64,000 bases of DNA, from the sequence record ON568341.1; one strand, given 5' to 3'. Positions 285 through 36,218 of this stretch are shown piece by piece. A program made the position numbers and the translations under genes. Under the pieces are notes generated by a model. The model was not told the origin of the DNA. It did no database searches and saw only the letters and a program-made list of their open reading frames with translations. Every line of letters starts with the position of its first letter. Position 1 is the first letter of the stretch. The stretch comes from Escherichia phage UE-S1.

Positions 285-806
285 TTGGATATGTTTTTTG
301 GACAGTTAAAAAAACCTAACAGTACTTTAATTTGGCATGAAATCATCTTTAAAATTATATCTAAAAGCTACTCACTAAAAGATATTATCAAAACAGATCA
401 TGATCGACATGTTCTGTTAGAAGCAAAATATAAATTGAGCAAACACCCGTTACTTTCGTTAATCATTGATTACGTTAATGATTATGAATCCAGTCGTTGG
501 CAGTGGGAAGACGGAGGTTTATTTCGTGGAAAAACATTCTACGGTGCCGAACGATATGTATTCAGTGATACAGCAAATGATGTTAAGTTTGCTATTAGAA
601 ACTTTAACTCCAAAGAAAATGATTATCTTGAAAGTGGAGTTAAGGTGTATATAGATAATAATAGCAATGTACTTACATATGACGAATCACTAATTATGTT
701 ACAAATAATGCGTGGAGTTGAAAGTGTAAGACACAATCTTACTAAGTTGAAAATCCAGCAAAATGATATACATAATAGACAGAAAATTAAGGGTTTATAT
801 AAATGA
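285..806 (+). CDS. hypothetical protein, tandem paralog of the next gene
   Basis: ORF track; shares an E-x-KY-x-LSK region and similar length with 803..1312. Confidence 0.5.
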   Translation: MDMFFGQLKKPNSTLIWHEIIFKIISKSYSLKDIIKTDHDRHVLLEAKYKLSKHPLLSLIIDYVNDYESSRWQWEDGGLFRGKTFYGAERYVFSDTANDVKFAIRNFNSKENDYLESGVKVYIDNNSNVLTYDESLIMLQIMRGVESVRHNLTKLKIQQNDIHNRQKIKGLYK

Positions 807-1312
807 TTTCATTTTTCAAAAAGAAAGAAAAAGTTGATGAAACTGGATTAGAATCGTTTCTATGGACTCTTATCATTAAAAAAAGTCCATTGATGAAAGA
901 ATATGCTATCAATGATGCTAATAGAAAAACTATCATTGAATACAAATATGAATTATCAAAATGTGATCCAATTGTTTATCACTTTGCGAAGTACTGTTCT
1001 AACAATTTATCGGATATCACTATTGAACACGAGTCAGTACCAATGAGTTTTCCTTATGGTGATTGGGTAGATACTTTTGATATTTTTGATGGTTCAAATG
1101 GTTTCAGTTTCTTTTACTCGTCAAATAAAGCAAATGTTCGTATTAAAACAGAGATAGGTTGGACACAGCATAGCTCAAATAAAGAAGATTATAATTTACT
1201 AGCTGACGTATACCGAAGTGTGAAGAATTCAAAGGATATTGATGAAAGAATTAAAAAGCAAAATCGTATTTCTTTATCACTTGAAACATACAAGTCAAAG
1301 TATGGTGGTTAA
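803..1312 (+). CDS. hypothetical protein, tandem paralog of the previous gene
   Basis: ORF track; 4-nt overlap with upstream gene; EYKYELSK motif parallels EAKYKLSK. Confidence 0.5.
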   Translation: MISFFKKKEKVDETGLESFLWTLIIKKSPLMKEYAINDANRKTIIEYKYELSKCDPIVYHFAKYCSNNLSDITIEHESVPMSFPYGDWVDTFDIFDGSNGFSFFYSSNKANVRIKTEIGWTQHSSNKEDYNLLADVYRSVKNSKDIDERIKKQNRISLSLETYKSKYGG

Positions 1313-1314
1313 CT

Positions 1315-1716
1315 ATGACTACAGTTGATGATATCTATAGTACTATACGAAATATGAGTACAGATAGAAAAGTATTTGGTGATAAAGAAAAATCTAAGTG
1401 TTATGGTATTGATTCTTTTGATATAATTTCGTATGAGTACAACACGAATGGAAATAGTTCACTGAATATCGTCTGCCCTCGTGACCCAGAAAATAATTTT
1501 ATGTATGTTGAAATTAATAATGATGGGATGTTTTTTACAAAAGTTTTCAAAGGTGGTATTAATTACGAACCTATTGAATGTATGAATGAAGAAACTTTCT
1601 TTCAAGAAGATACAATTATCAATTTAGGTTTTAGTTTTGCGGATTATAAAACATTAGAACATGACTTTAATCGTTATTATAACGGTTTCTTAAAGGAGTT
1701 AACAATTTATCTATGA
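1315..1716 (+). CDS. hypothetical protein
   Basis: ORF track; tightly packed with flanking genes. Confidence 0.5.
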   Translation: MTTVDDIYSTIRNMSTDRKVFGDKEKSKCYGIDSFDIISYEYNTNGNSSLNIVCPRDPENNFMYVEINNDGMFFTKVFKGGINYEPIECMNEETFFQEDTIINLGFSFADYKTLEHDFNRYYNGFLKELTIYL

Positions 1717-2945
1717 ATAACCAATATGTTGAACAAACAATAGTGAAACACTTGGCTGGGTCACAAGCCTACGGAACCAGTACGCCTGAAAGTGATACTG
1801 ATTATCGTGGTATTTTTCTTGCTAATAAAGAATTTATTCTTACGCCATTCTATAAGGTTAAAGAAGTAGCTGATAAAAATGAAGAAGATACCAAATTCTA
1901 TGAGTTAAATCAGTATTTAAAATTATACACTGAAGCCAACCCTAATATTCTGGAATCACTATGGGTTGAACCAGAACACATTGTAGAAAGTACTGAGATT
2001 TATGACTATCTTCGTTCATTTAACCAAAAACTTCTTAGTTCTAAGATTGCATTTTCATATACTGGATATGCATATAATCAGATTAAGCGTATGACAAATC
2101 ATCACGGTTGGATGGATAAAGAGCGAATTGCTGAAAAACGTTTAAATGAGATTTTAGAAGAACACCCTGTCGATGAGGTTCTTGCGTGGATGTATGATTC
2201 ATTCCCACAATATCTTGTTGAACGTTTAGATACATCTAACTTACATCCATTTAATACTAAAAAGATTGATTTTGAAAAATATATGCGTGATACGTCATTG
2301 CAGTTAGTTTCGAAAAATCCATTAAAGCAATATCATTTTGTAAGATTAGTGCATAACTACACTACTGACAAAATTCTAGATCGTGATTTCAATTTATTGA
2401 ATTTTAATAATGGCTATGAACTAATTCATTACGGAGAAAACATTTTTGCGATTATTAAAAATCCAAATGAAAGCACTATCAACGGTGATGGATCATTGCG
2501 TTATTTTTCTAAAGAGCGTAGTACTGAAGAATTGAAAACTAAACCAGAACTAATTGTCAAATTTAACGAAAAAGAATATCAGGAAAATAGTGAGAATAGA
2601 AAAAGTTATCATAAATGGAAAGAAAATCGTAATGCCAAACGTGCTATTTTAGAATCACAACACGGATACGATTGTAAACATGCTATGCACACAATCCGAC
2701 TTTTGAATAGTGCAGAAGAAGCATTACAAAGTGGAATTATTCAAGTTAAACGACCAGATGCACAAATGTTGATGGATATTCGTAATGGTAAATGGAAGTA
2801 TGAAGAAGTCTTAGAATATTTCGATGATAAAGTACAATACATTCGTGATGTTCTATATAAGAAATCAGTACTTCCCAAAAAACCTAACATCAAGTTAGCA
2901 TCGAAAATTATAATTGATATTCGAGAAATGCAATGGTATAAGTAA
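1713..2945 (+). CDS. Pol-beta superfamily nucleotidyltransferase-like protein
   Basis: N-terminal HLAGSQAYGTSTPESDTDYRGIF fits the minimal nucleotidyltransferase G[SG]...D-x-D signature; 410 aa. Confidence 0.55.
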   Translation: MNNQYVEQTIVKHLAGSQAYGTSTPESDTDYRGIFLANKEFILTPFYKVKEVADKNEEDTKFYELNQYLKLYTEANPNILESLWVEPEHIVESTEIYDYLRSFNQKLLSSKIAFSYTGYAYNQIKRMTNHHGWMDKERIAEKRLNEILEEHPVDEVLAWMYDSFPQYLVERLDTSNLHPFNTKKIDFEKYMRDTSLQLVSKNPLKQYHFVRLVHNYTTDKILDRDFNLLNFNNGYELIHYGENIFAIIKNPNESTINGDGSLRYFSKERSTEELKTKPELIVKFNEKEYQENSENRKSYHKWKENRNAKRAILESQHGYDCKHAMHTIRLLNSAEEALQSGIIQVKRPDAQMLMDIRNGKWKYEEVLEYFDDKVQYIRDVLYKKSVLPKKPNIKLASKIIIDIREMQWYK

Positions 2946-3007
2946 TATATGGGTGTAATAGTTATAAAAATTCCATTACACACCAAATCACTTCAGTGAT
3001 TTATAAC

Positions 3008-3035
3008 TTGACATTGAAAAATAATTATGTATAAT
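3008..3035 (+). promoter_or_regulatory. sigma70-like promoter (TTGACA, 16-nt spacer, TATAAT)
   Basis: TTGACA at 3008-3013 and TATAAT at 3030-3035 read directly; upstream of the ACP-like gene. Confidence 0.45.
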
Positions 3036-3036
3036 T

Positions 3037-3066
3037 AGAGAACTTCATATGGAGTTCTCTTTTTTA
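3037..3066 (+). terminator. intrinsic terminator-like hairpin plus T-run
   Basis: AGAGAACT / AGTTCTCT stem followed by TTTTTT; 90 nt after the stop of 1713..2945. Confidence 0.45.
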
Positions 3067-3079
3067 TAAGGGTGATAAA

Positions 3080-3481
3080 ATGTTAAATGAACGTATTAAA
3101 AATGCACTATATGTATTGAACCAAGAAGTTAATTCTATTCATAAAAGTACTGAGCGATATAAAGTATTACATGAAATTAGACAAGAATTGGAATCCATTA
3201 ATAAGGGAAAATGGGTTCTTGAACGCGAACGAACTATTGTTGAAAAAGCAATTGCAAAATTCATCTCGGAACGTTATGGTAAAATTTCAGAGGAAGATGT
3301 ACTAATGAACTTACATCTTTCACAAACGGAAGTGATGGAGAAATTTCATTTTGATTCATTAGACTGGTTAGAAATGATCATGGAATTGGAAGAAGAATTC
3401 AATGTAGAAGTAGATTTATATTATGAAAAACAAGAAACCAAACTATATGAACTAGCAGAACACATTAAACTAATGATGTAA
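3080..3481 (+). CDS. acyl carrier protein-like domain protein (N-terminal extension plus ACP-like C-terminus)
   Basis: C-terminal DSLDWLEMIMELEEEFNVEVD closely parallels the ACP phosphopantetheine-site region [20 protein letters not shown]. Confidence 0.55.
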   Translation: MLNERIKNALYVLNQEVNSIHKSTERYKVLHEIRQELESINKGKWVLERERTIVEKAIAKFISERYGKISEEDVLMNLHLSQTEVMEKFHFDSLDWLEMIMELEEEFNVEVDLYYEKQETKLYELAEHIKLMM

Positions 3482-3534
3482 ACATATACCATTATATACT
3501 CTAAATAATATCATCAACCACAGGAGATATTATT

Positions 3535-3909
3535 ATGAGTATACTAGAAATAATAGTTTCAAACATTCTTATTCCATATTGGAAACCAATTTCTTTTGCA
3601 TTATTAATTAGTGGTTCAGCAATTGCGGGTTGGAAAGCTAATACTTATTATACTGGTTATCAAGAAAGTATAGAGCAACAAATAGCCAAAAAAGTTGATA
3701 TAGCACTTGATAAAATGCAACAAGAAAATACAAAAAGCTATCTTGAAACAAAAAAAATTATGGAAGATAATACAAAAGTCATTGAAACAAAGGTTCCTTA
3801 TATAGTAGAACGTGAAGTTTATAAAAATGTTTGTTTAGATGAAGATGGTGTGAAAGTACTGAATGAACTTAAACAAAATTCTAAAGCGGCAAGGAATAAA
3901 TTCAAATGA
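3535..3909 (+). CDS. candidate i-spanin (N-terminal transmembrane segment, charged helical periplasmic part)
   Basis: Single N-terminal hydrophobic segment ISFALLISGSAIAGW; 4-nt overlap with the downstream lipoprotein gene. Confidence 0.4.
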   Translation: MSILEIIVSNILIPYWKPISFALLISGSAIAGWKANTYYTGYQESIEQQIAKKVDIALDKMQQENTKSYLETKKIMEDNTKVIETKVPYIVEREVYKNVCLDEDGVKVLNELKQNSKAARNKFK

Positions 3910-4214
3910 AAAAAATGTTAGTACCGTTTATTTCTTTTTTAATTATAAGTGGATGTGCAGAACAAGTAAAAGTACAATCCCCTGCACCAATTAAACAAGA
4001 AATTCTGTTAGAAAGATGTGATGATGACACACCACTACCACAAAAAATTATGATTGACCAAAACGGATTTAAAGGGTATAGTGGGAGTGAAATTCTCAAA
4101 GTTCTTACCCGTTGGGATGCAATCTATAACGAATGTGCATTGAAACATGATGCATTGATCAAAACCATTCGTGATTTACAAGGTAAAGATATTAAAATAA
4201 ATATCAAGGATTAA
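3906..4214 (+). CDS. candidate o-spanin (small lipoprotein)
   Basis: Signal peptide with lipobox LIISGC, proline-rich mature part with Cys residues, 102 aa. Confidence 0.45.
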   Translation: MKKMLVPFISFLIISGCAEQVKVQSPAPIKQEILLERCDDDTPLPQKIMIDQNGFKGYSGSEILKVLTRWDAIYNECALKHDALIKTIRDLQGKDIKINIKD

Positions 4215-4215
4215 A

Positions 4216-4827
4216 ATGAACAAATATCATGTTTATTATACAACAAAGTTATCCCTTCTTGATGAATTAAATCACCGAAGTACTAAGATGAAACGTTATA
4301 CTTTAAATGGTATTACTTTTCGATATTTCCCACAAAAAGTCCTTACTTTTGTCAAGAATCCAAAATGCGTGGCATGTGGGATTGAAGCCACTGAAGTACG
4401 CATTGAACGTACATTTAGTTCTGATCCAGTTTATGGTAAACCACATTTAAATGTATATGCGGTATGTGGTCTTTATGAAGTGTTGATGACAGTTGATCAC
4501 AACCATCTGGCATCGAAGGGTGGTTGTGATTTAGAGTCAAACTTTAATACTATGTGCTCCAAATGCAATCAACTACGTTCTAATAAAACCGAAACAGTTG
4601 ATGAGTTTCTTGAGAAAGTTAAAGATCGTAATCTTCTCCAAGAACATATGAATAAATTCTTTAACGTACAAAAAAAGAAAAATAACATTGACAAGTCGAA
4701 ACTACTAGAAGAACGTAGGTTACGTCAAGAATTATGGGAAACAGACCATCTATGGCATGTTCGAGAATTTGGTCGTCATATGAAAGCTTTGAAAAAAGAA
4801 CAGAAGAAATTGAATAAACATGATTGA
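4216..4827 (+). CDS. HNH family homing endonuclease
   Basis: DHNHLASKGGCDLESNFNTMCSKCNQ HNH motif with an upstream C-x-x-C pair. Confidence 0.8.
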   Translation: MNKYHVYYTTKLSLLDELNHRSTKMKRYTLNGITFRYFPQKVLTFVKNPKCVACGIEATEVRIERTFSSDPVYGKPHLNVYAVCGLYEVLMTVDHNHLASKGGCDLESNFNTMCSKCNQLRSNKTETVDEFLEKVKDRNLLQEHMNKFFNVQKKKNNIDKSKLLEERRLRQELWETDHLWHVREFGRHMKALKKEQKKLNKHD

Positions 4828-4840
4828 TATGATATTATAG

Positions 4841-4868
4841 GGACTTGAGTATTCAAGTCCTTTTTTTT
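4841..4868 (+). terminator. intrinsic terminator
   Basis: GGACTTGA GTAT TCAAGTCC hairpin followed by TTTTTTTT. Confidence 0.6.
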
Positions 4869-4879
4869 GGAGAAGATAA

Positions 4880-5236
4880 ATGAAATCTAAAATATTTTTA
4901 CCACAATTAATGTGGCATCTGGCAGAGTTAGATGAAGATGATGAATATACTGACTATGGTGCATGGGATGACAGTACTGAAACTTTTAAATCAGATGTAA
5001 AATATAAAATCATCTGCAATGAAAGCAAAGGGCACAGAAGGTGGACTGAAGAATTTGATCTCGTATTTCTTGACATGAGTACAAATAAGTTTTATCATTG
5101 TACTTATGAACGAGGTTTAACAGAAGATAGACCAGTACAACCATTCAGTAATGAAACGGATGGTGTTAAGTGCAATGAAGTTTCTGTAACCAGAGAAGAA
5201 ATTATTACTTATCGAACTTTGTGGAAATATTTGTAA
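4880..5236 (+). CDS. hypothetical protein
   Basis: ORF track; RBS GGAGAAG upstream. Confidence 0.5.
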   Translation: MKSKIFLPQLMWHLAELDEDDEYTDYGAWDDSTETFKSDVKYKIICNESKGHRRWTEEFDLVFLDMSTNKFYHCTYERGLTEDRPVQPFSNETDGVKCNEVSVTREEIITYRTLWKYL

Positions 5237-5237
5237 A

Positions 5238-5636
5238 ATGCTTAAAGAATTAGATTTTTCAAACTTAGAAATTATCAGTGCTGTAAAAAACATTTCCGAT
5301 ATGGGTGATGAGAAAGCAGTTCTTGTTACTATTACTTTTGTAAAAGAAAAAGATAGCTATAGCCATTTAACGGGTATTGAAGAACTAATTCATAAAACCA
5401 ATCTTGAGAATGATGGTAAACTCATCAAGCTTCAGGCTTCCTATACGCAAAAAACGTCAAATTTTATAGACCTAAATAATGTAGTCAAGGTGGTATACAA
5501 TCATCCTGAACACACATATAGGAATACGTCAAGAAATGAAAATGTTGCTAACGATTCGAATATTATCGAAGATGTTGAATTCATAAACACAATTTTTGAT
5601 CGTTGTTCTAAGGATTTAAAAAAAGTATACATGTAA
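5238..5636 (+). CDS. hypothetical protein
   Basis: ORF track. Confidence 0.45.
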   Translation: MLKELDFSNLEIISAVKNISDMGDEKAVLVTITFVKEKDSYSHLTGIEELIHKTNLENDGKLIKLQASYTQKTSNFIDLNNVVKVVYNHPEHTYRNTSRNENVANDSNIIEDVEFINTIFDRCSKDLKKVYM

Positions 5637-5941
5637 TGGGACATTATATGTTCCAATGATATAATGTATATAGAAAATGACAACGGACATTGAAAAATGG
5701 ACACTGAGAACCTACTTCTCTTGAAAATGTAAAGGATAGATGAGCTTTACCGTTGTAGCGAACAGCAGAAGAAACCTGTTAGAGTACTGGCATTCAAACA
5801 AACACGATATAAGACCACGAATCACGGCGACACGGCTGTATAAAGAACTCCGATAAGCATACAGAGAGTTCCTAGATAGATGTATAAGGTTCGCACCTTA
5901 CCAGATTTGCTAAGGGAGTTCAAGAATTGCGGACGCATTTT

Positions 5942-5971
5942 TACAAGAAAGTTGCGTCCAAAATTTGAGAA
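5942..5971 (+). repeat. 30-nt direct repeat, copy 1 (tacaagaaagTTGcgtccaaaatttgagaa)
   Basis: 27 of 30 identical to the copy at 6094..6123; overlaps hairpin GGACGCA/TGCGTCC at 5931-5959. Confidence 0.6.
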
Positions 5972-6093
5972 CAAGTACTACTTTGATCGAATAGAGTTAG
6001 TACTGAGTGCTGTTGATGAAAAGACCAGCGACCGTTGCATATGACTGCGATAGAGAGAAACCGAGCAACCCGCTTTCGCTCTCTAATTTTTGG

Positions 6094-6123
6094 TACAAGA
6101 AAGATCCGTCCAAAATTTGAGAA
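6094..6123 (+). repeat. 30-nt direct repeat, copy 2 (tacaagaaagATCcgtccaaaatttgagaa)
   Basis: 27 of 30 identical to the copy at 5942..5971. Confidence 0.6.
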
Positions 6124-6160
6124 ATTCGCAATTCGATAATATCCGATGCCATCATCGTCA

Positions 6161-6188
6161 AGAGAGACTTAATTGTCTCTTTTTTATT
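6161..6188 (+). terminator. intrinsic terminator-like hairpin plus T-run inside the ORF-free region
   Basis: AGAGAGAC ttaatt GTCTCT followed by TTTTT; could mark the 3' end of a small RNA. Confidence 0.45.
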
Positions 6189-6325
6189 ACCTTCATTCCC
6201 CTGCGGGGGGATGTAATAGTCCTCAACAAATCCCGTCAAGTTTTTAAAGTACATTATCATTTTTAGAAGGAACTAGTTTACGAAGTAAACGCAGTGACTT
6301 CTTGAGTTACGAGAGAACGAAGTGA

Positions 6326-6785: not shown

Positions 6786-7226
6786 ATGGAAAATATTGAA
6801 AATTTAAGACATGTTATGGATTTTATCATTGATACTGAAGAAGATAATGCTTATGATGAAATCTTACTAACTTTTATTGAAAATAGTTTGTTTTTAAGTT
6901 CTGCTGCACATAGCTGGCATTTACAAAGCCGTTTCTACACAAAGCATCTTCAATTGGATGAACTATACAAAGAGTTACCAGAGTACGTTGATGCATTTGT
7001 TGAGGGTATAATGAATACTCGTGGGGCATTACAGGTAGGTACTGGTAACAGTTATCGATTTACCCACATTGAGGATTGTGTTCCAATTCTTGAAGAGTAT
7101 TCTAGCCAATGTAAAGCAATTCATGCTATGCTCGAAGAGGCAGAAGACTATGGCAGTACTAACACACTAGAAGATATTATGAGTTTTGTTGATGGTGTGC
7201 TTTACAAACTTAAAGTTTTACAATAA
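6786..7226 (+). CDS. hypothetical protein, possibly ferritin/Dps-like
   Basis: AHSWHLQSRFYTKHLQLDELYKELPEYVD loosely resembles the Dps helix A motif (HWNV..F..LH..LD); size fits. Confidence 0.45.
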   Translation: MENIENLRHVMDFIIDTEEDNAYDEILLTFIENSLFLSSAAHSWHLQSRFYTKHLQLDELYKELPEYVDAFVEGIMNTRGALQVGTGNSYRFTHIEDCVPILEEYSSQCKAIHAMLEEAEDYGSTNTLEDIMSFVDGVLYKLKVLQ

Positions 7227-7233
7227 ACTATAT

Positions 7234-7263
7234 GGAGAGTCATAGTGACTCTCCTTTTCTTTT
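7234..7263 (+). terminator. intrinsic terminator
   Basis: GGAGAGTCA tag TGACTCTCC followed by TTTTCTTTT. Confidence 0.6.
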
Positions 7264-32825: not shown

Positions 32826-33806
32826 ATGGCTAAAAAAATTAATGAAGCACAAGTTAAAATCGATATCGCAGGTTTAGAATCTGATGATTTGGAAACACTA
32901 TCCCGTATGTTAGCTCTTGCTGGTCAAGCTGAACGTCAAGACCCTGTGGTTGCTGCTCCAGTATCATCTATTGGGTCTATGGCTCCATCTCTACCACCTA
33001 TTGCACCACTAGATCTTGATTCTATTAGTGCCGAAAAAGAAATTGGTGGAATTGAAACTTCAGTTGAAGATCCATTGGCAGCAGCAGTTGATGGTCTTTC
33101 CGCTGATGATGGTGATTTTGGTGCTGACACCGATGAAGTTGGTATTGATGCTGAATTTTCAGAACCAGGCGTAGAAGGTGAAGAAGATTTTTCTCTTGAC
33201 CTTAGTGGTCAACCTCAACTAGAATCAGTTGAAGAAGACGACGATGAGGAAGAAGAAATCATCGAAGAAGAATTCGATTTTAGTCGTATGCTATCTCTTG
33301 CTGGTATTAACGAAGAAGAAGACGACGATTTTTCCGTAGAGGGTAATACTGCTACTGATAGAGAAATGAAAGATACTCAATTTCTACCAGATCTAAGTAT
33401 CTCTGAAGATGAAGAACCATCTGACAGTACTGATTATGGTCCATATAATACTGAAGCTGATGCAGTTCGTGATGGTCAACTTAAGACTAATGGTGTTGAA
33501 GGTGATCATTTTGTTGTAATTGCGAAAGGGAACCAGTTTTATTGGAGACGTGTTGTAGATGAAGATGTTGACAATCGTCCAGAACCAGAGTATTATGACA
33601 ATGAAGGAAACGAAAATCGCGTTCATAAATTTGAACCAAAATCTCCAGGTACTGCATTAGGAGATAACCCACTCAATGTTAATGAAAGTGAAGAAGATGA
33701 TTCACCAGAAGGTAACACTGACTTGGAAGATGACTCTGATGAAGAAGTAGAAGATATTTTCGAAAGTCTCCAAGAAAAATATAAAAAATTTTTAGGAGAC
33801 AAATAA
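32826..33806 (+). CDS. highly acidic hypothetical protein with repeated SRML-x-LAG motif
   Basis: Long Asp/Glu runs (EEDDDEEEEIIEEEFD); LSRMLALAGQ and FSRMLSLAGI repeats. Confidence 0.5.
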   Translation: MAKKINEAQVKIDIAGLESDDLETLSRMLALAGQAERQDPVVAAPVSSIGSMAPSLPPIAPLDLDSISAEKEIGGIETSVEDPLAAAVDGLSADDGDFGADTDEVGIDAEFSEPGVEGEEDFSLDLSGQPQLESVEEDDDEEEEIIEEEFDFSRMLSLAGINEEEDDDFSVEGNTATDREMKDTQFLPDLSISEDEEPSDSTDYGPYNTEADAVRDGQLKTNGVEGDHFVVIAKGNQFYWRRVVDEDVDNRPEPEYYDNEGNENRVHKFEPKSPGTALGDNPLNVNESEEDDSPEGNTDLEDDSDEEVEDIFESLQEKYKKFLGDK

Positions 33807-33807
33807 T

Positions 33808-34203
33808 ATGCAATATAATTATCGTGAACTAGTTGAAGCGTTGGACGAAATCACCGGACGAGATGAAGAAGGAAGTTTTTCCGTTGAAGTTGATTCCGAT
33901 GTTGTAGCAATTGATGTTCTTAAAGATATTACCAAATGTCTCGTTGATATTGTTGATAAGATTAAATCTGGTGAAGATCAAAAAGAAATCGTTGATAAAC
34001 TACAAAAAGCATGTGACATTTTGTCTGACATTCGATATAATGATGAAAGTACTGAAGTCGATGATGATGAAGTGATGGAAGCTATTGCTGGATGTTTTGG
34101 AACTGAAGGTATGGGTCCAACGATTGACAAAGATGGCGTACAGCACTATAATGAACCAGATGCACCATCTTATGCTGCACGCCAAGGTTATGTTGGAGAC
34201 TAA
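33808..34203 (+). CDS. acidic hypothetical protein
   Basis: ORF track; RBS GGAGA. Confidence 0.5.
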   Translation: MQYNYRELVEALDEITGRDEEGSFSVEVDSDVVAIDVLKDITKCLVDIVDKIKSGEDQKEIVDKLQKACDILSDIRYNDESTEVDDDEVMEAIAGCFGTEGMGPTIDKDGVQHYNEPDAPSYAARQGYVGD

Positions 34204-34208
34204 AATAT

Positions 34209-34589
34209 ATGTTTCCTGTACCATCACATAACAGTACTGAATATCAAAATGATGTACTTTCCAAAGTTAGGGAAGTACATGAATCAGATTCAGAAATAAC
34301 AGACCGTATGCTTCTGATGTCAATTTTTGAAAATTTCAGAACTGGCGGTGGTTTACGTCTTAGCAAGTTTGGGTATGGAATTTGTAAAGAAAATAATCTT
34401 TATGAATTTACAAAAATCCCCTTGCAAAGAGAATTTAAAAGTTCTATAATGTTTACATCACTTGACAGAATATGTACTTCACCTTATTATGTTGAAGGTC
34501 AGTACATATATCTGACAGATGCAATGATAATAACTGAATTAACATTGTGTTGTGATGATTTTAAACAATTATTTTCTATTCATATGTAA
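34209..34589 (+). CDS. hypothetical protein
   Basis: ORF track; RBS GGAGA. Confidence 0.45.
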   Translation: MFPVPSHNSTEYQNDVLSKVREVHESDSEITDRMLLMSIFENFRTGGGLRLSKFGYGICKENNLYEFTKIPLQREFKSSIMFTSLDRICTSPYYVEGQYIYLTDAMIITELTLCCDDFKQLFSIHM

Positions 34590-34601
34590 GAAAAATAAAT
34601 G

Positions 34602-34629
34602 TTGACAAGATAGAATGATGTGATATAAT
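34602..34629 (+). promoter_or_regulatory. sigma70-like promoter P1 (TTGACA, 16 nt, TGaTATAAT)
   Basis: Read directly; nearly identical element repeats 93 bp downstream. Confidence 0.5.
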
Positions 34630-34694
34630 AAGCATCAGACATAAAGTTTTCAAGCGGCACAAGATGTGAGTTTGAAAAAAATAAAAAAAAGTGA

Positions 34695-34722
34695 TTGACA
34701 AGTTGAAACGATGTGATATAAT
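34695..34722 (+). promoter_or_regulatory. sigma70-like promoter P2 (TTGACA, 16 nt, TGaTATAAT)
   Basis: Near-duplicate of P1, including the ATGTGATATAAT block. Confidence 0.5.
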
Positions 34723-34822
34723 GTTCACATCAAGGCAGCAAAGAGATTTACCTTTTTAAACACACGGATGATTCATGAAGTAATAAAGGAACTGATAAGT
34801 TAAATTATTTTAACACAGTTCC

Positions 34823-34892: not shown

Positions 34893-36218
34893 ATGACTAC
34901 TCAAAACGATATCCTGAATGTTAAACTGACTCCAAAGAAAGCTAAAGAAGCAATGGCACTAGCTGACATGATTCAAGATAGCCTGATGATTTGGGGTAGC
35001 CCAGGTATCGGTAAGTCTGCAATTGCTCGTCAATACGCTGATGAAAATTACCCTCTGCGTAAAGATAACGAAGCTAAAATCGAGTTCATGAAACAACAAA
35101 TTGAAGCTGACCCTGAAAATGCTGATCAGCTACGCCGTGAACTGGCTGCATTTGAAGCTAAACTAATCGACCAAGATACTAACTTCATCGATTTCCGTTT
35201 GTCTCAAATTGAACCAAGTGACCTCCGTGGTATCCCTGTACCAGAGAAGCTTTTCCGTAAAACTGACGGTTCTCTTCTCAAAGAATCTGAGCTTGCTGAA
35301 GCAAAAGATTATGTTGCTGAAACTGCTGTAGTTTGGGCTGCACCTAAAGTGCTGAAATTGCCAGAAGATTGGAAAGGGGTTATTCTGTTTGACGAAATTA
35401 ACTCTGCAATGCCAATTGTTCAGGCAGCGTCTTATCAGCTAATCCTCGACCGTTGTGTTGGTGAGATGAAGCTACCTAAAACTGCACTGATTCTTGCAGC
35501 AGGTAACCGTGAAACTGATGGCGGTGTAACGTTCTCACTGGCTACACCACTACGTGACCGTATGACACACATTGAGATGATTCCTTATCATCAAGATTGG
35601 ATTAACGATTATGCAATTGGTAAACGTTTGAACCCAGCAACTGTTGCGTTCATCAACAACACAGGTTCTAAGTACTTTAACACTCTTAGCCCACAAGATC
35701 CTTCTCACAGTGGTGGTACTTCTCCACGTTCATGGGAAGCTGTAGCACGCTACGAAGATCTCAAGAAAACTAAGACAATTGATAAAGAAGTGTTCCGTGC
35801 AATGATTGCTGGGCGTGTAGGTGAAGGTGTAGCAACTGAATACATTGAGTACGTTGATAACGTTGCTAAACTACCAGATACTATGTCTATTCTGTCTGGT
35901 GAAATCAAAGATATCGATGCAACTCTTGATATTTCTGCGAATTATTTTATTACTTTGAACTTGGTTTATAAAATTATCGACCTGTTCAATGAGAAGCAAG
36001 AACAACGTCTACCAGTGGAAGAATGGGGTAAACTGTGCAACAACTTCATTACCTTCCTTGACCATAACTTCTCTGCAACTCAAGCAGAACTGGCAGTTCT
36101 GGCAATTCGCACCATTACGCTTCATAAGGTTGCGATTTCCATTAAAGATGTACCAGCGTTTAAAGATTTTATCGCTAAGTACTCTGAACTAGTTCGTAAA
36201 GCACGCTCTCTTGGGTAA
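34893..36218 (+). CDS. MoxR-like AAA+ ATPase (AAA_5/CbbQ/CobS-like)
   Basis: Walker A WGSPGIGKSAIARQYA, Walker B VILFDEINSA, downstream AAGNRE; 441 aa single-AAA architecture. Confidence 0.7.
   Translation: MTTQNDILNVKLTPKKAKEAMALADMIQDSLMIWGSPGIGKSAIARQYADENYPLRKDNEAKIEFMKQQIEADPENADQLRRELAAFEAKLIDQDTNFIDFRLSQIEPSDLRGIPVPEKLFRKTDGSLLKESELAEAKDYVAETAVVWAAPKVLKLPEDWKGVILFDEINSAMPIVQAASYQLILDRCVGEMKLPKTALILAAGNRETDGGVTFSLATPLRDRMTHIEMIPYHQDWINDYAIGKRLNPATVAFINNTGSKYFNTLSPQDPSHSGGTSPRSWEAVARYEDLKKTKTIDKEVFRAMIAGRVGEGVATEYIEYVDNVAKLPDTMSILSGEIKDIDATLDISANYFITLNLVYKIIDLFNEKQEQRLPVEEWGKLCNNFITFLDHNFSATQAELAVLAIRTITLHKVAISIKDVPAFKDFIAKYSELVRKARSLG

Follow-up and report, generated by a model that had tools for sequence, protein, structure and literature searches.

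The acyl carrier protein (ACP) of Escherichia coli, AcpP, is one of the most highly connected proteins of this bacterium. It has a part in making fatty acids, lipid A, phospholipids, biotin and lipoate, and counts MukB, IscS and SpoT among its binding partners. Docking of its partners, MukB included, commonly takes place on the acidic helix α2, i.e., helix II, and apo- and holo-AcpP stimulate the ATPase of MukB to the same extent (PMC8602292). Apo-ACP inhibits the glycerol-3-phosphate acyltransferase PlsB, and growth, more strongly than holo-ACP does; SpoT does not bind apo-ACP (PMC3896788). On PlsB and MukB an ACP fold without its prosthetic group is active through helix II, which is a property of the host protein. 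The gene considered here lies at 3080–3481 of a 64,000-nucleotide stretch of Escherichia phage UE-S1 (record ON568341.1), referred to as the window. Its product joins an ACP-like domain to an added N-terminal helix, and belongs to a family in which, judging by the sequences compared, the attachment serine is not conserved, while the docking residues of helix II are nearly fixed.

Nucleotide matches assign the source of the window to the Asteriusvirus jumbo coliphages of ~350 kb, and a 3.6-kb query around the locus is ~92% identical to Escherichia phages ph0011 and slurp01, whereas 121Q, PBECO4 and phAPEC6 match part of its length only. The setting of this gene is thus a jumbo phage and not a T5-like early region. 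Nor are carrier proteins unexpected in such phages, as had been thought: orthologues are already annotated as ACPs in GAP32, CBB, phAPEC6, Sharanji and vB_Ec-M-J (EcMJ), the PHROGs collection includes families named 'acyl carrier protein', and a 2020 paper on Eneladusvirus points out that a gene for an ACP lies next to those of the spanins (PMC7760394). The labels in the records vary between 'acyl carrier protein', 'acpP', 'carrier domain-containing protein' and 'D-alanyl carrier protein'; the third of these is given in ph0011 to the direct counterpart of the UE-S1 gene (99% identity). The annotated proteins of the RaK2-like phages (GAP32 gp159, CBB gp163, phAPEC6 gp313c, Sharanji acpP and the Eneladusvirus ACP) share the architecture of the UE-S1 protein and its position ahead of the spanins, and are its orthologues; their annotation rests on a PP-binding match alone. 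In the literature searched, which included the genome descriptions of the Asteriusvirus members phAPEC6, Sharanji and fEgEco12, there is no discussion of serine loss or fast evolution.

Plain phage ACPs form a second group of relatives (phrog_5934 and phrog_4154), with the ACP fold and a similar helix II. One of these, the 81-residue gp339 of Achromobacter phage Motura, is 43.5% identical to the UE-S1 protein over residues 50–111. Unlike the UE-S1 protein, the plain ACPs lack the N-terminal helix, have the canonical DSLD and fall into PHROG families separate from phrog_18343. The ACP-type annotation is already known; what appears to be new is that this family of ACP folds, specific to phages and extended at the N terminus, no longer depends on the pantetheine site.

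Fold and conservation of the ACP-like protein

The original prediction placed a gene pair at 1713–2945 and 3080–3481, and both open reading frames (ORFs) are present there. In an AlphaFold2 model of the 3080–3481 product, built on an alignment of 35 family sequences, residues 53–133 reach a predicted local distance difference test (pLDDT) value above 90 and contain the ACP helices (53–65, 93–107, 113–116 and 122–132), with two additional short helices inside the enlarged loop 1. Foldseek comparison of this model gives target-normalised template-modelling scores of 0.70–0.77. By these measures the product has the four-helix carrier-protein fold, and the ACP-like helix bundle first read from the sequence stands. 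The best phmmer matches in the PDB are likewise E. coli AcpP (E = 3.4e-4), with 35% identity over residues 52–111 and 35–37% over the domain, and hhalign aligns the family profile with AcpP residues 3–74 at 93.6% probability (E = 2e-7).

Profile evidence for a functional carrier is much weaker than the evidence from the fold. NCBIfam ACP models reach E = 1e-6 but score 28–29 bits against cut-offs of 66–106, and the Pfam PP-binding model (PF00550) matches the UE-S1 protein at 20.8 bits, exactly the gathering cut-off, with 23 residues aligned; six of the 35 family members attain E ≤ 0.01 with this model. The best PHROG match, phrog_18343 (E = 5.4e-40, residues 2–132), is listed as 'unknown function'. 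The UE-S1 protein and AcpP (PF00550) have in common the fold, the length from the attachment site to the C terminus, the core hydrophobics and six acidic residues in helix II, but differ in the N-terminal helix of ~52 residues and the six-residue insertion in loop 1. Furthermore, the small Gly-Ala pair that precedes the Asp in AcpP is replaced by [HNK]-[FL] in the phage family, and AcpP Thr39 by a Trp that is invariant in the sub-clade of the UE-S1 protein.

The N-terminal extension is present, albeit with ~52 residues instead of the ~65 first proposed. It is modelled as a single helix (residues 4–48, pLDDT 67–80) with a low-confidence linker to the ACP domain, and its signature in 24 clade representatives is a hydrophobic stripe at 3–4 spacing together with a near-invariant [DE]-R-Y, here E25-R26-Y27. 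Only the conserved spacing suggests a coiled coil; amphipathicity of the helix is not significant by the hydrophobic moment at 100 degrees. The ACP gene model of GAP32 (3480–3887 of its record) begins at an internal Met and omits this conserved helix. No signal peptide or transmembrane segment is found in the ACP-like protein. PADLOC models give no match for the UE-S1 protein or its 121Q orthologue and one marginal, non-credible match for the RaK2 orthologue (E = 0.005), and the literature searches, which extended to ACP-type anti-defence proteins, found no anti-defence role for this protein.

Word-indexed and exhaustive profile searches, together with tblastn against phage genomes, showed the helix-plus-ACP architecture to be limited, among the collections searched, to RaK2-like jumbo phages and to metagenomic contigs related to them. 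This one architecture is common to 49 clusters from five jumbo-phage genera, including Asteriusvirus (121Q, PBECO4, slurp01, phAPEC6, JNE01 and others), Alcyoneusvirus (RaK2, K64-1 and Muenster), Mimasvirus (GAP32 and CBB) and Eneladusvirus (pEa_SNUABM_19, here pEa19, of the same species as Serratia phage BF). The UE-S1 protein belongs to the phrog_18343 family by its full-length match, its [DE]-R-Y helix and its place upstream of a spanin pair. The product of Salmonella phage SD-15_S21 is a 192-residue read-through; the probable cause is an error of sequencing, or a frameshift, close to the stop codon.

The DSLD motif noted at the outset is indeed found at residues 92–95 of the UE-S1 protein, in the helix-II stretch F-D-S-L-D-W-L-E-M-I-M-E-L-E-E-E-F (F-D-S-L-D-W being residues 91–96), with Ser93 at the position of AcpP Ser36. 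In carrier proteins the attachment serine should be the one invariant residue. The UE-S1 allele has it, but across the 49 clusters it is not conserved. In the genome records the codon is TCA in the window and in ph0011, and TGG (Trp) in 121Q, slurp01, phAPEC6 and EcMJ. Among 35 close clusters the column holds 18 Thr, nine Trp, six Ser, one Asn and one Arg, and when distant members are included to give 49 N-extended clusters it holds 18 Thr, 13 Ser, nine Trp, four Asp, two Glu and single Asn, Arg and Lys. The residues around it behave differently: the equivalents of AcpP D35, D38, E41, M44, E47, F50 and E53, as well as the hydrophobic core, are conserved in 79–96% of the 24 clade representatives, and the UE-S1 allele retains all six acidic residues of helix II.

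Changes were counted by parsimony on a neighbour-joining tree of 43 tips, calculated with the attachment-site column masked. The attachment site has changed at least 11 times, which is the median of all columns (rank 63 of the 128 scored), compared with one change each at D92, D95 and E104 and three each at L94, E98 and M101. The site is not hypervariable and behaves like an unconstrained surface residue. Serine is kept mainly in the Mimasvirus/Eneladusvirus branch, where DSLD is canonical, and has been lost repeatedly in the branch that carries the invariant Trp three residues further on. The UE-S1 protein sits in the latter branch, and Ser-type alleles form several lineages inside Asteriusvirus. 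Since the serine is dispensable while the docking helix and the core are conserved, we infer that the selected function of the family does not need the prosthetic group.

The gene also has a history of its own. The UE-S1 protein is 65–67% identical to its slurp01 and phAPEC6 counterparts, against 88–99% for the neighbouring proteins, and in the slurp01 comparison the gene is the most divergent of its neighbourhood; relative to ph0011 the order is inverted, with 99% identity for the ACP-like protein and 84–97% for its neighbours. The divergent patch has sharp bounds (Table 1) and is a replaced allele, confined to the ACP-like gene and not part of a generally divergent region. The ratio of nonsynonymous to synonymous substitution rates (dN/dS, Nei-Gojobori) is 0.31 (dN 0.21, dS 0.68) for this gene and 0.03–0.13 for its neighbours, and lies at 0.26–0.35 across comparisons; the raised dS shows that the two alleles predate the sequence that flanks them. 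The gene is under purifying selection but markedly less constrained than its neighbours. A hypervariable site under positive selection was considered and dropped, because the attachment site changes at the median rate and the gene-wide ratio is 0.31.

Candidate functions

The original prediction left three functions open, i.e., carrier, decoy or scaffold. The carrier role is disfavoured because the attachment serine is not conserved, and a decoy or scaffold fits better. We regard it as fairly probable that the protein is a pantetheine-independent ACP mimic, decoy or adaptor, derived from an ACP of type-II fatty-acid synthesis to which an amphipathic N-terminal helix of ~50 residues was added. 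Helix II would dock onto a partner that normally recognises ACP, and the N-terminal helix would provide oligomerisation or a second contact. The consensus host-type promoter ahead of the gene suggests that the protein is probably synthesised early by the host RNA polymerase. The most plausible targets would be host AcpP clients that accept unmodified ACP, e.g., PlsB or the MukB joint, and the potency of unmodified ACP in E. coli makes such a binding-based reading plausible. Host AcpS may incidentally attach the prosthetic group to the serine of the UE-S1 allele, but this would not be what selection maintains.

Several observations weigh against this assignment. The UE-S1 allele has Ser in a DSLD with the full acidic complement of helix II, and its modification by host AcpS is quite possible. 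Members of Mimasvirus and Eneladusvirus keep the canonical motif, so the ancestor may have been a true carrier and function may vary by clade. The binding partner, host or phage, is putative; the dN/dS of 0.31 indicates relaxed constraint and not demonstrated positive selection; and the promoter is absent in EcMJ, RaK2 and pEa19, early expression being deduced from the promoter match alone. Finally, an Eneladusvirus orthologue is reported in liquid chromatography–tandem mass spectrometry of phage proteins (PMC7760394), which hints at a particle-associated role. The ACP-like orthologue was not detected in the virion proteome of phAPEC6, in which the products of the flanking upstream genes, gp314c and gp315c, were detected (PMC7247149). 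For phAPEC6 this result speaks against a structural role, and a virion component is judged unlikely.

A more specific version, which we put forward tentatively, is that the protein mimics host AcpP and occupies, through its acidic helix II, the ACP-docking site of a client that does not depend on the pantetheine arm, with the MukB joint and PlsB as candidates. At the point from which the arm normally projects, the client would be touched by the residue that now occupies the former attachment site, variable or aromatic, and by the invariant Trp three positions further on; the N-terminal helix would dimerise or anchor the mimic. Allele swapping and the raised substitution rate would then reflect tuning to host range or an arms race. 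Occupation of the MukB joint would disable chromosome organisation by MukBEF, and occupation of PlsB would bring the synthesis of phospholipids to a halt. MukBEF is a known target of phages: T7 gp5.9, a DNA mimic, is reported to inhibit this complex (PMC7617805). In common, gp5.9 and the ACP-like protein share the concept of a small acidic imitation of a ligand, but they differ in fold and in the ligand imitated (DNA versus ACP), and the comparison is an analogy only. Literature searches for phage ACP mimics found nothing, and the protein, if the mimic reading is right, would be the first viral ACP mimic described, as far as these searches show. A protein that keeps the docking face and dispenses with the cargo arm would lend itself naturally to probing the ACP interaction network, and would possibly represent a new mechanism of host takeover. 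In several jumbo-phage records the gene is counted among the auxiliary metabolic genes and labelled 'acyl carrier protein', 'acpP' or 'D-alanyl carrier protein', a label that is probably wrong for most family members.

A genuine carrier, of which the Ser93 allele would be made holo by host AcpS to shuttle acyl or aminoacyl groups in the service of an enzyme of the phage or the host, with a different, derived function in the relatives that lack Ser, seems to us unlikely. The retained DSLD with its six acidic helix-II residues, the best sequence matches to E. coli AcpP, the PP-binding match at the gathering score, the DSLD of the Mimasvirus and Eneladusvirus orthologues and the several Ser-type lineages of Asteriusvirus all speak for it. 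However, sister alleles at 65–74% identity, in genomes that are otherwise 88–99% identical, have Trp or Thr at the site, which implies that alleles are interchangeable without Ser; few members reach E ≤ 0.01 with Pfam PP-binding, and the site evolves at the median column rate. A cognate machinery is also missing where it was looked for. With E. coli AcpS and Bacillus subtilis Sfp as queries, tblastn finds no AcpS- or Sfp-type phosphopantetheinyl transferase in any RaK2-like genome, although a very divergent one could escape such a search. The annotations of the conserved block in the five genera include no synthase, no acyltransferase and no adenylating enzyme, and those of the 50 kb downstream in 121Q no ACP-dependent enzyme, the remainder of the ~350-kb genome having been checked for phosphopantetheinyl transferases only.

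The constant downstream neighbours of the gene raise the alternative of an accessory to lysis or the envelope, which would bind or regulate the spanin pair or another phage complex in the way that ACP is a structural subunit of some cellular complexes. We hold this to be improbable. In all five genera the ACP-like gene is followed without interruption by the i-spanin and o-spanin genes, with insertions on both sides of the trio; the adjacency has been remarked upon (PMC7760394), and the window has no terminator between these genes before 4839. Yet the whole block is syntenic, and adjacency carries little weight; in pEa19 a hairpin with a T-run stands between the ACP-like gene and the i-spanin, where the transcripts are probably separate. 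The ACP-like protein has neither export signal nor membrane segment, whereas the spanins are mostly periplasmic. The spanins do not share its divergence pattern: depending on the comparison it evolves far faster or far slower than they do, which shows that they are not co-inherited. Lipoprotein acylation offers no link either, as Lgt and Lnt use phospholipid donors and not acyl-ACP.

That the gene is a decaying, now functionless remnant of a captured host acpP, as the lost serine, the raised dN/dS and the borderline Pfam score could suggest, is highly improbable in view of the intact frame and two-part architecture over five genera and 49 clusters, a dN/dS well below 1, nearly invariant helix-II and core residues, and an added helix with invariant residues of its own.

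Genome neighbourhood and further features

The features of the locus are collected in Table 1.

Table 1. Features at and around the ACP-like gene of the UE-S1 window
Feature	Position	Strand	Basis or remark
RlaP-type Pol-beta-fold nucleotidyltransferase, 410 aa	1713..2945	+	Pfam PF10127, phrog_388, motif
Consensus sigma-70 promoter, TTGACA-16 nt-TATAAT	3008..3035	+	12/12 match
10-bp hairpin followed by T6, T-run continuing to 3065	3037..3060	+	dG -14.4 kcal/mol, z -3.6
Shine-Dalgarno-like AAGGGTGA, 4 nt ahead of ATG	3068..3075	+	Read from sequence
ACP-like gene, 133 aa + stop	3080..3481	+	ORF, profile and fold evidence
N-terminal extension, residues 1-52, one long helix (4-48), isoelectric point 9.2	3080..3235	+	AlphaFold2 model, conservation
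Divergent patch relative to slurp01	3146..3530	+	Sliding window: 67-82% nucleotide identity inside, 95-100% on both sides
ACP-fold domain, residues 53-133, 6-residue insertion in loop 1, isoelectric point 4.5	3236..3478	+	
Codon TCA, Ser93, equivalent of AcpP Ser36	3356..3358	+	Codon checked in genome records
Rz-like i-spanin, constant downstream neighbour	3535..3909	+	phrog_1152 (E 3.7e-27), synteny
Lipoprotein o-spanin, lipobox LIISGC	3906..4214	+	phrog_2425, weak Pfam LysC/Rz1 match
HNH endonuclease	4216..4827	+	phrog_23285 (E 9e-126)
Terminator-like hairpin and T-run	4839..4862	+	Probable end of the unit begun at 3008

The upstream gene has been correctly recognised as a Pol-beta-type nucleotidyltransferase. 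Its product matches Pfam RlaP over residues 12–131 (E = 2.9e-16; 60.4 bits, cut-off 23) and phrog_388, 'nucleotidyltransferase' (E = 1.4e-76), and the catalytic motif G[SG]-x9-13-D-x-[DE] is intact (G16-S17...D28-T29-D30); the PDB holds no sequence relative. A functional pairing with the ACP-like protein, as the original prediction had it, is not supported, given the spacing, which differs between genera, and the much broader distribution of the nucleotidyltransferase. The latter family occurs in more than 1000 phage records, T4-like and PVP-SE1-like phages included, most of which have no match to the ACP-like protein, itself matched in 46 records by tblastn. Among the genomes compared, the two genes adjoin only in the window, ph0011, slurp01 and vB_Ec-M-J. 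Tail-fibre genes (~3.3 kb) stand between them in 121Q, phAPEC6 and JNE01, as do three or four small ORFs in RaK2, GAP32, CBB and pEa19. The nucleotidyltransferase is therefore a neighbour and not a dedicated partner, its adjacency being an accident of local deletion. The corresponding insertion/deletion polymorphism lies at 2946–3007 of the window, against 507–3925 of the 121Q record and 2611–6029 of the phAPEC6 record; the inserted tail-fibre gene product gp314c of phAPEC6 is virion-associated by mass spectrometry.

The ACP-like gene has its own promoter, as predicted, and this is conserved in 121Q, phAPEC6, slurp01 and ph0011, whereas JNE01 retains the -10 box only. The hairpin that follows is conserved together with it; the module is limited to the 121Q/slurp01/ph0011 group, with a variant in JNE01, and is absent where the ACP-like gene abuts the upstream ORF. 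The hairpin proposed at the 5' end of the transcript is real, but its position favours another role. It starts 2 nt past the -10 box, which ends at 3035, and the transcription start expected ~7 nt past that box (~3042) falls inside its 5' arm (3037–3046). It is for this reason better read as the terminator of the upstream unit, overlapped by the promoter, whose own transcripts would escape it. Similar modules, in which a G+C-rich hairpin with its T-run comes directly after a promoter-like -10 box, recur at 3008–3060, 4810–4862 and 7201–7254, the hairpin at 7234–7254 scoring on both strands, and these suggest compact terminator/promoter junctions between transcription units.

The spacer between the ACP-like gene and the i-spanin (3482–3534) holds ACTCTAAATAAT, which is conserved from Asteriusvirus to RaK2 (CCCTAAATA) and resembles T4-type late promoters. 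The motif was not used further: CTCTAAATA has three matches in the window against 0.87 expected, and 5% of shuffles reach three. Downstream of the o-spanin, Asteriusvirus and RaK2 have the HNH endonuclease gene, which is missing at this place in GAP32, CBB and pEa_SNUABM_19, consistent with a mobile, homing-type insertion.

Elsewhere in the window, Rfam and transfer RNA scans of its whole length gave no match. The stretch 5637–6325 (~690 nt) has no convincing ORF on the + strand and an 87-residue ORF on the - strand (5997–6260), and relatives show a gap here too. A Dps-like gene, 'starvation-inducible DNA-binding protein', lies at 6786–7226; in phAPEC6 the orthologous gp306c was detected among the virion proteins, at 65.8% sequence coverage, which is odd for the Dps family (PMC7247149). 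Seven of the 19 promoter matches that score at least 11/12 in the window fall within 1.3 kb (33421–34723). At 34591–34722, in a 300-nt gap upstream of ORF 34893–36218 ('ATPase' in 121Q), two 12/12 sigma-70 promoters with a TGn extended -10 box stand 93 nt apart as a 39-nt direct repeat.

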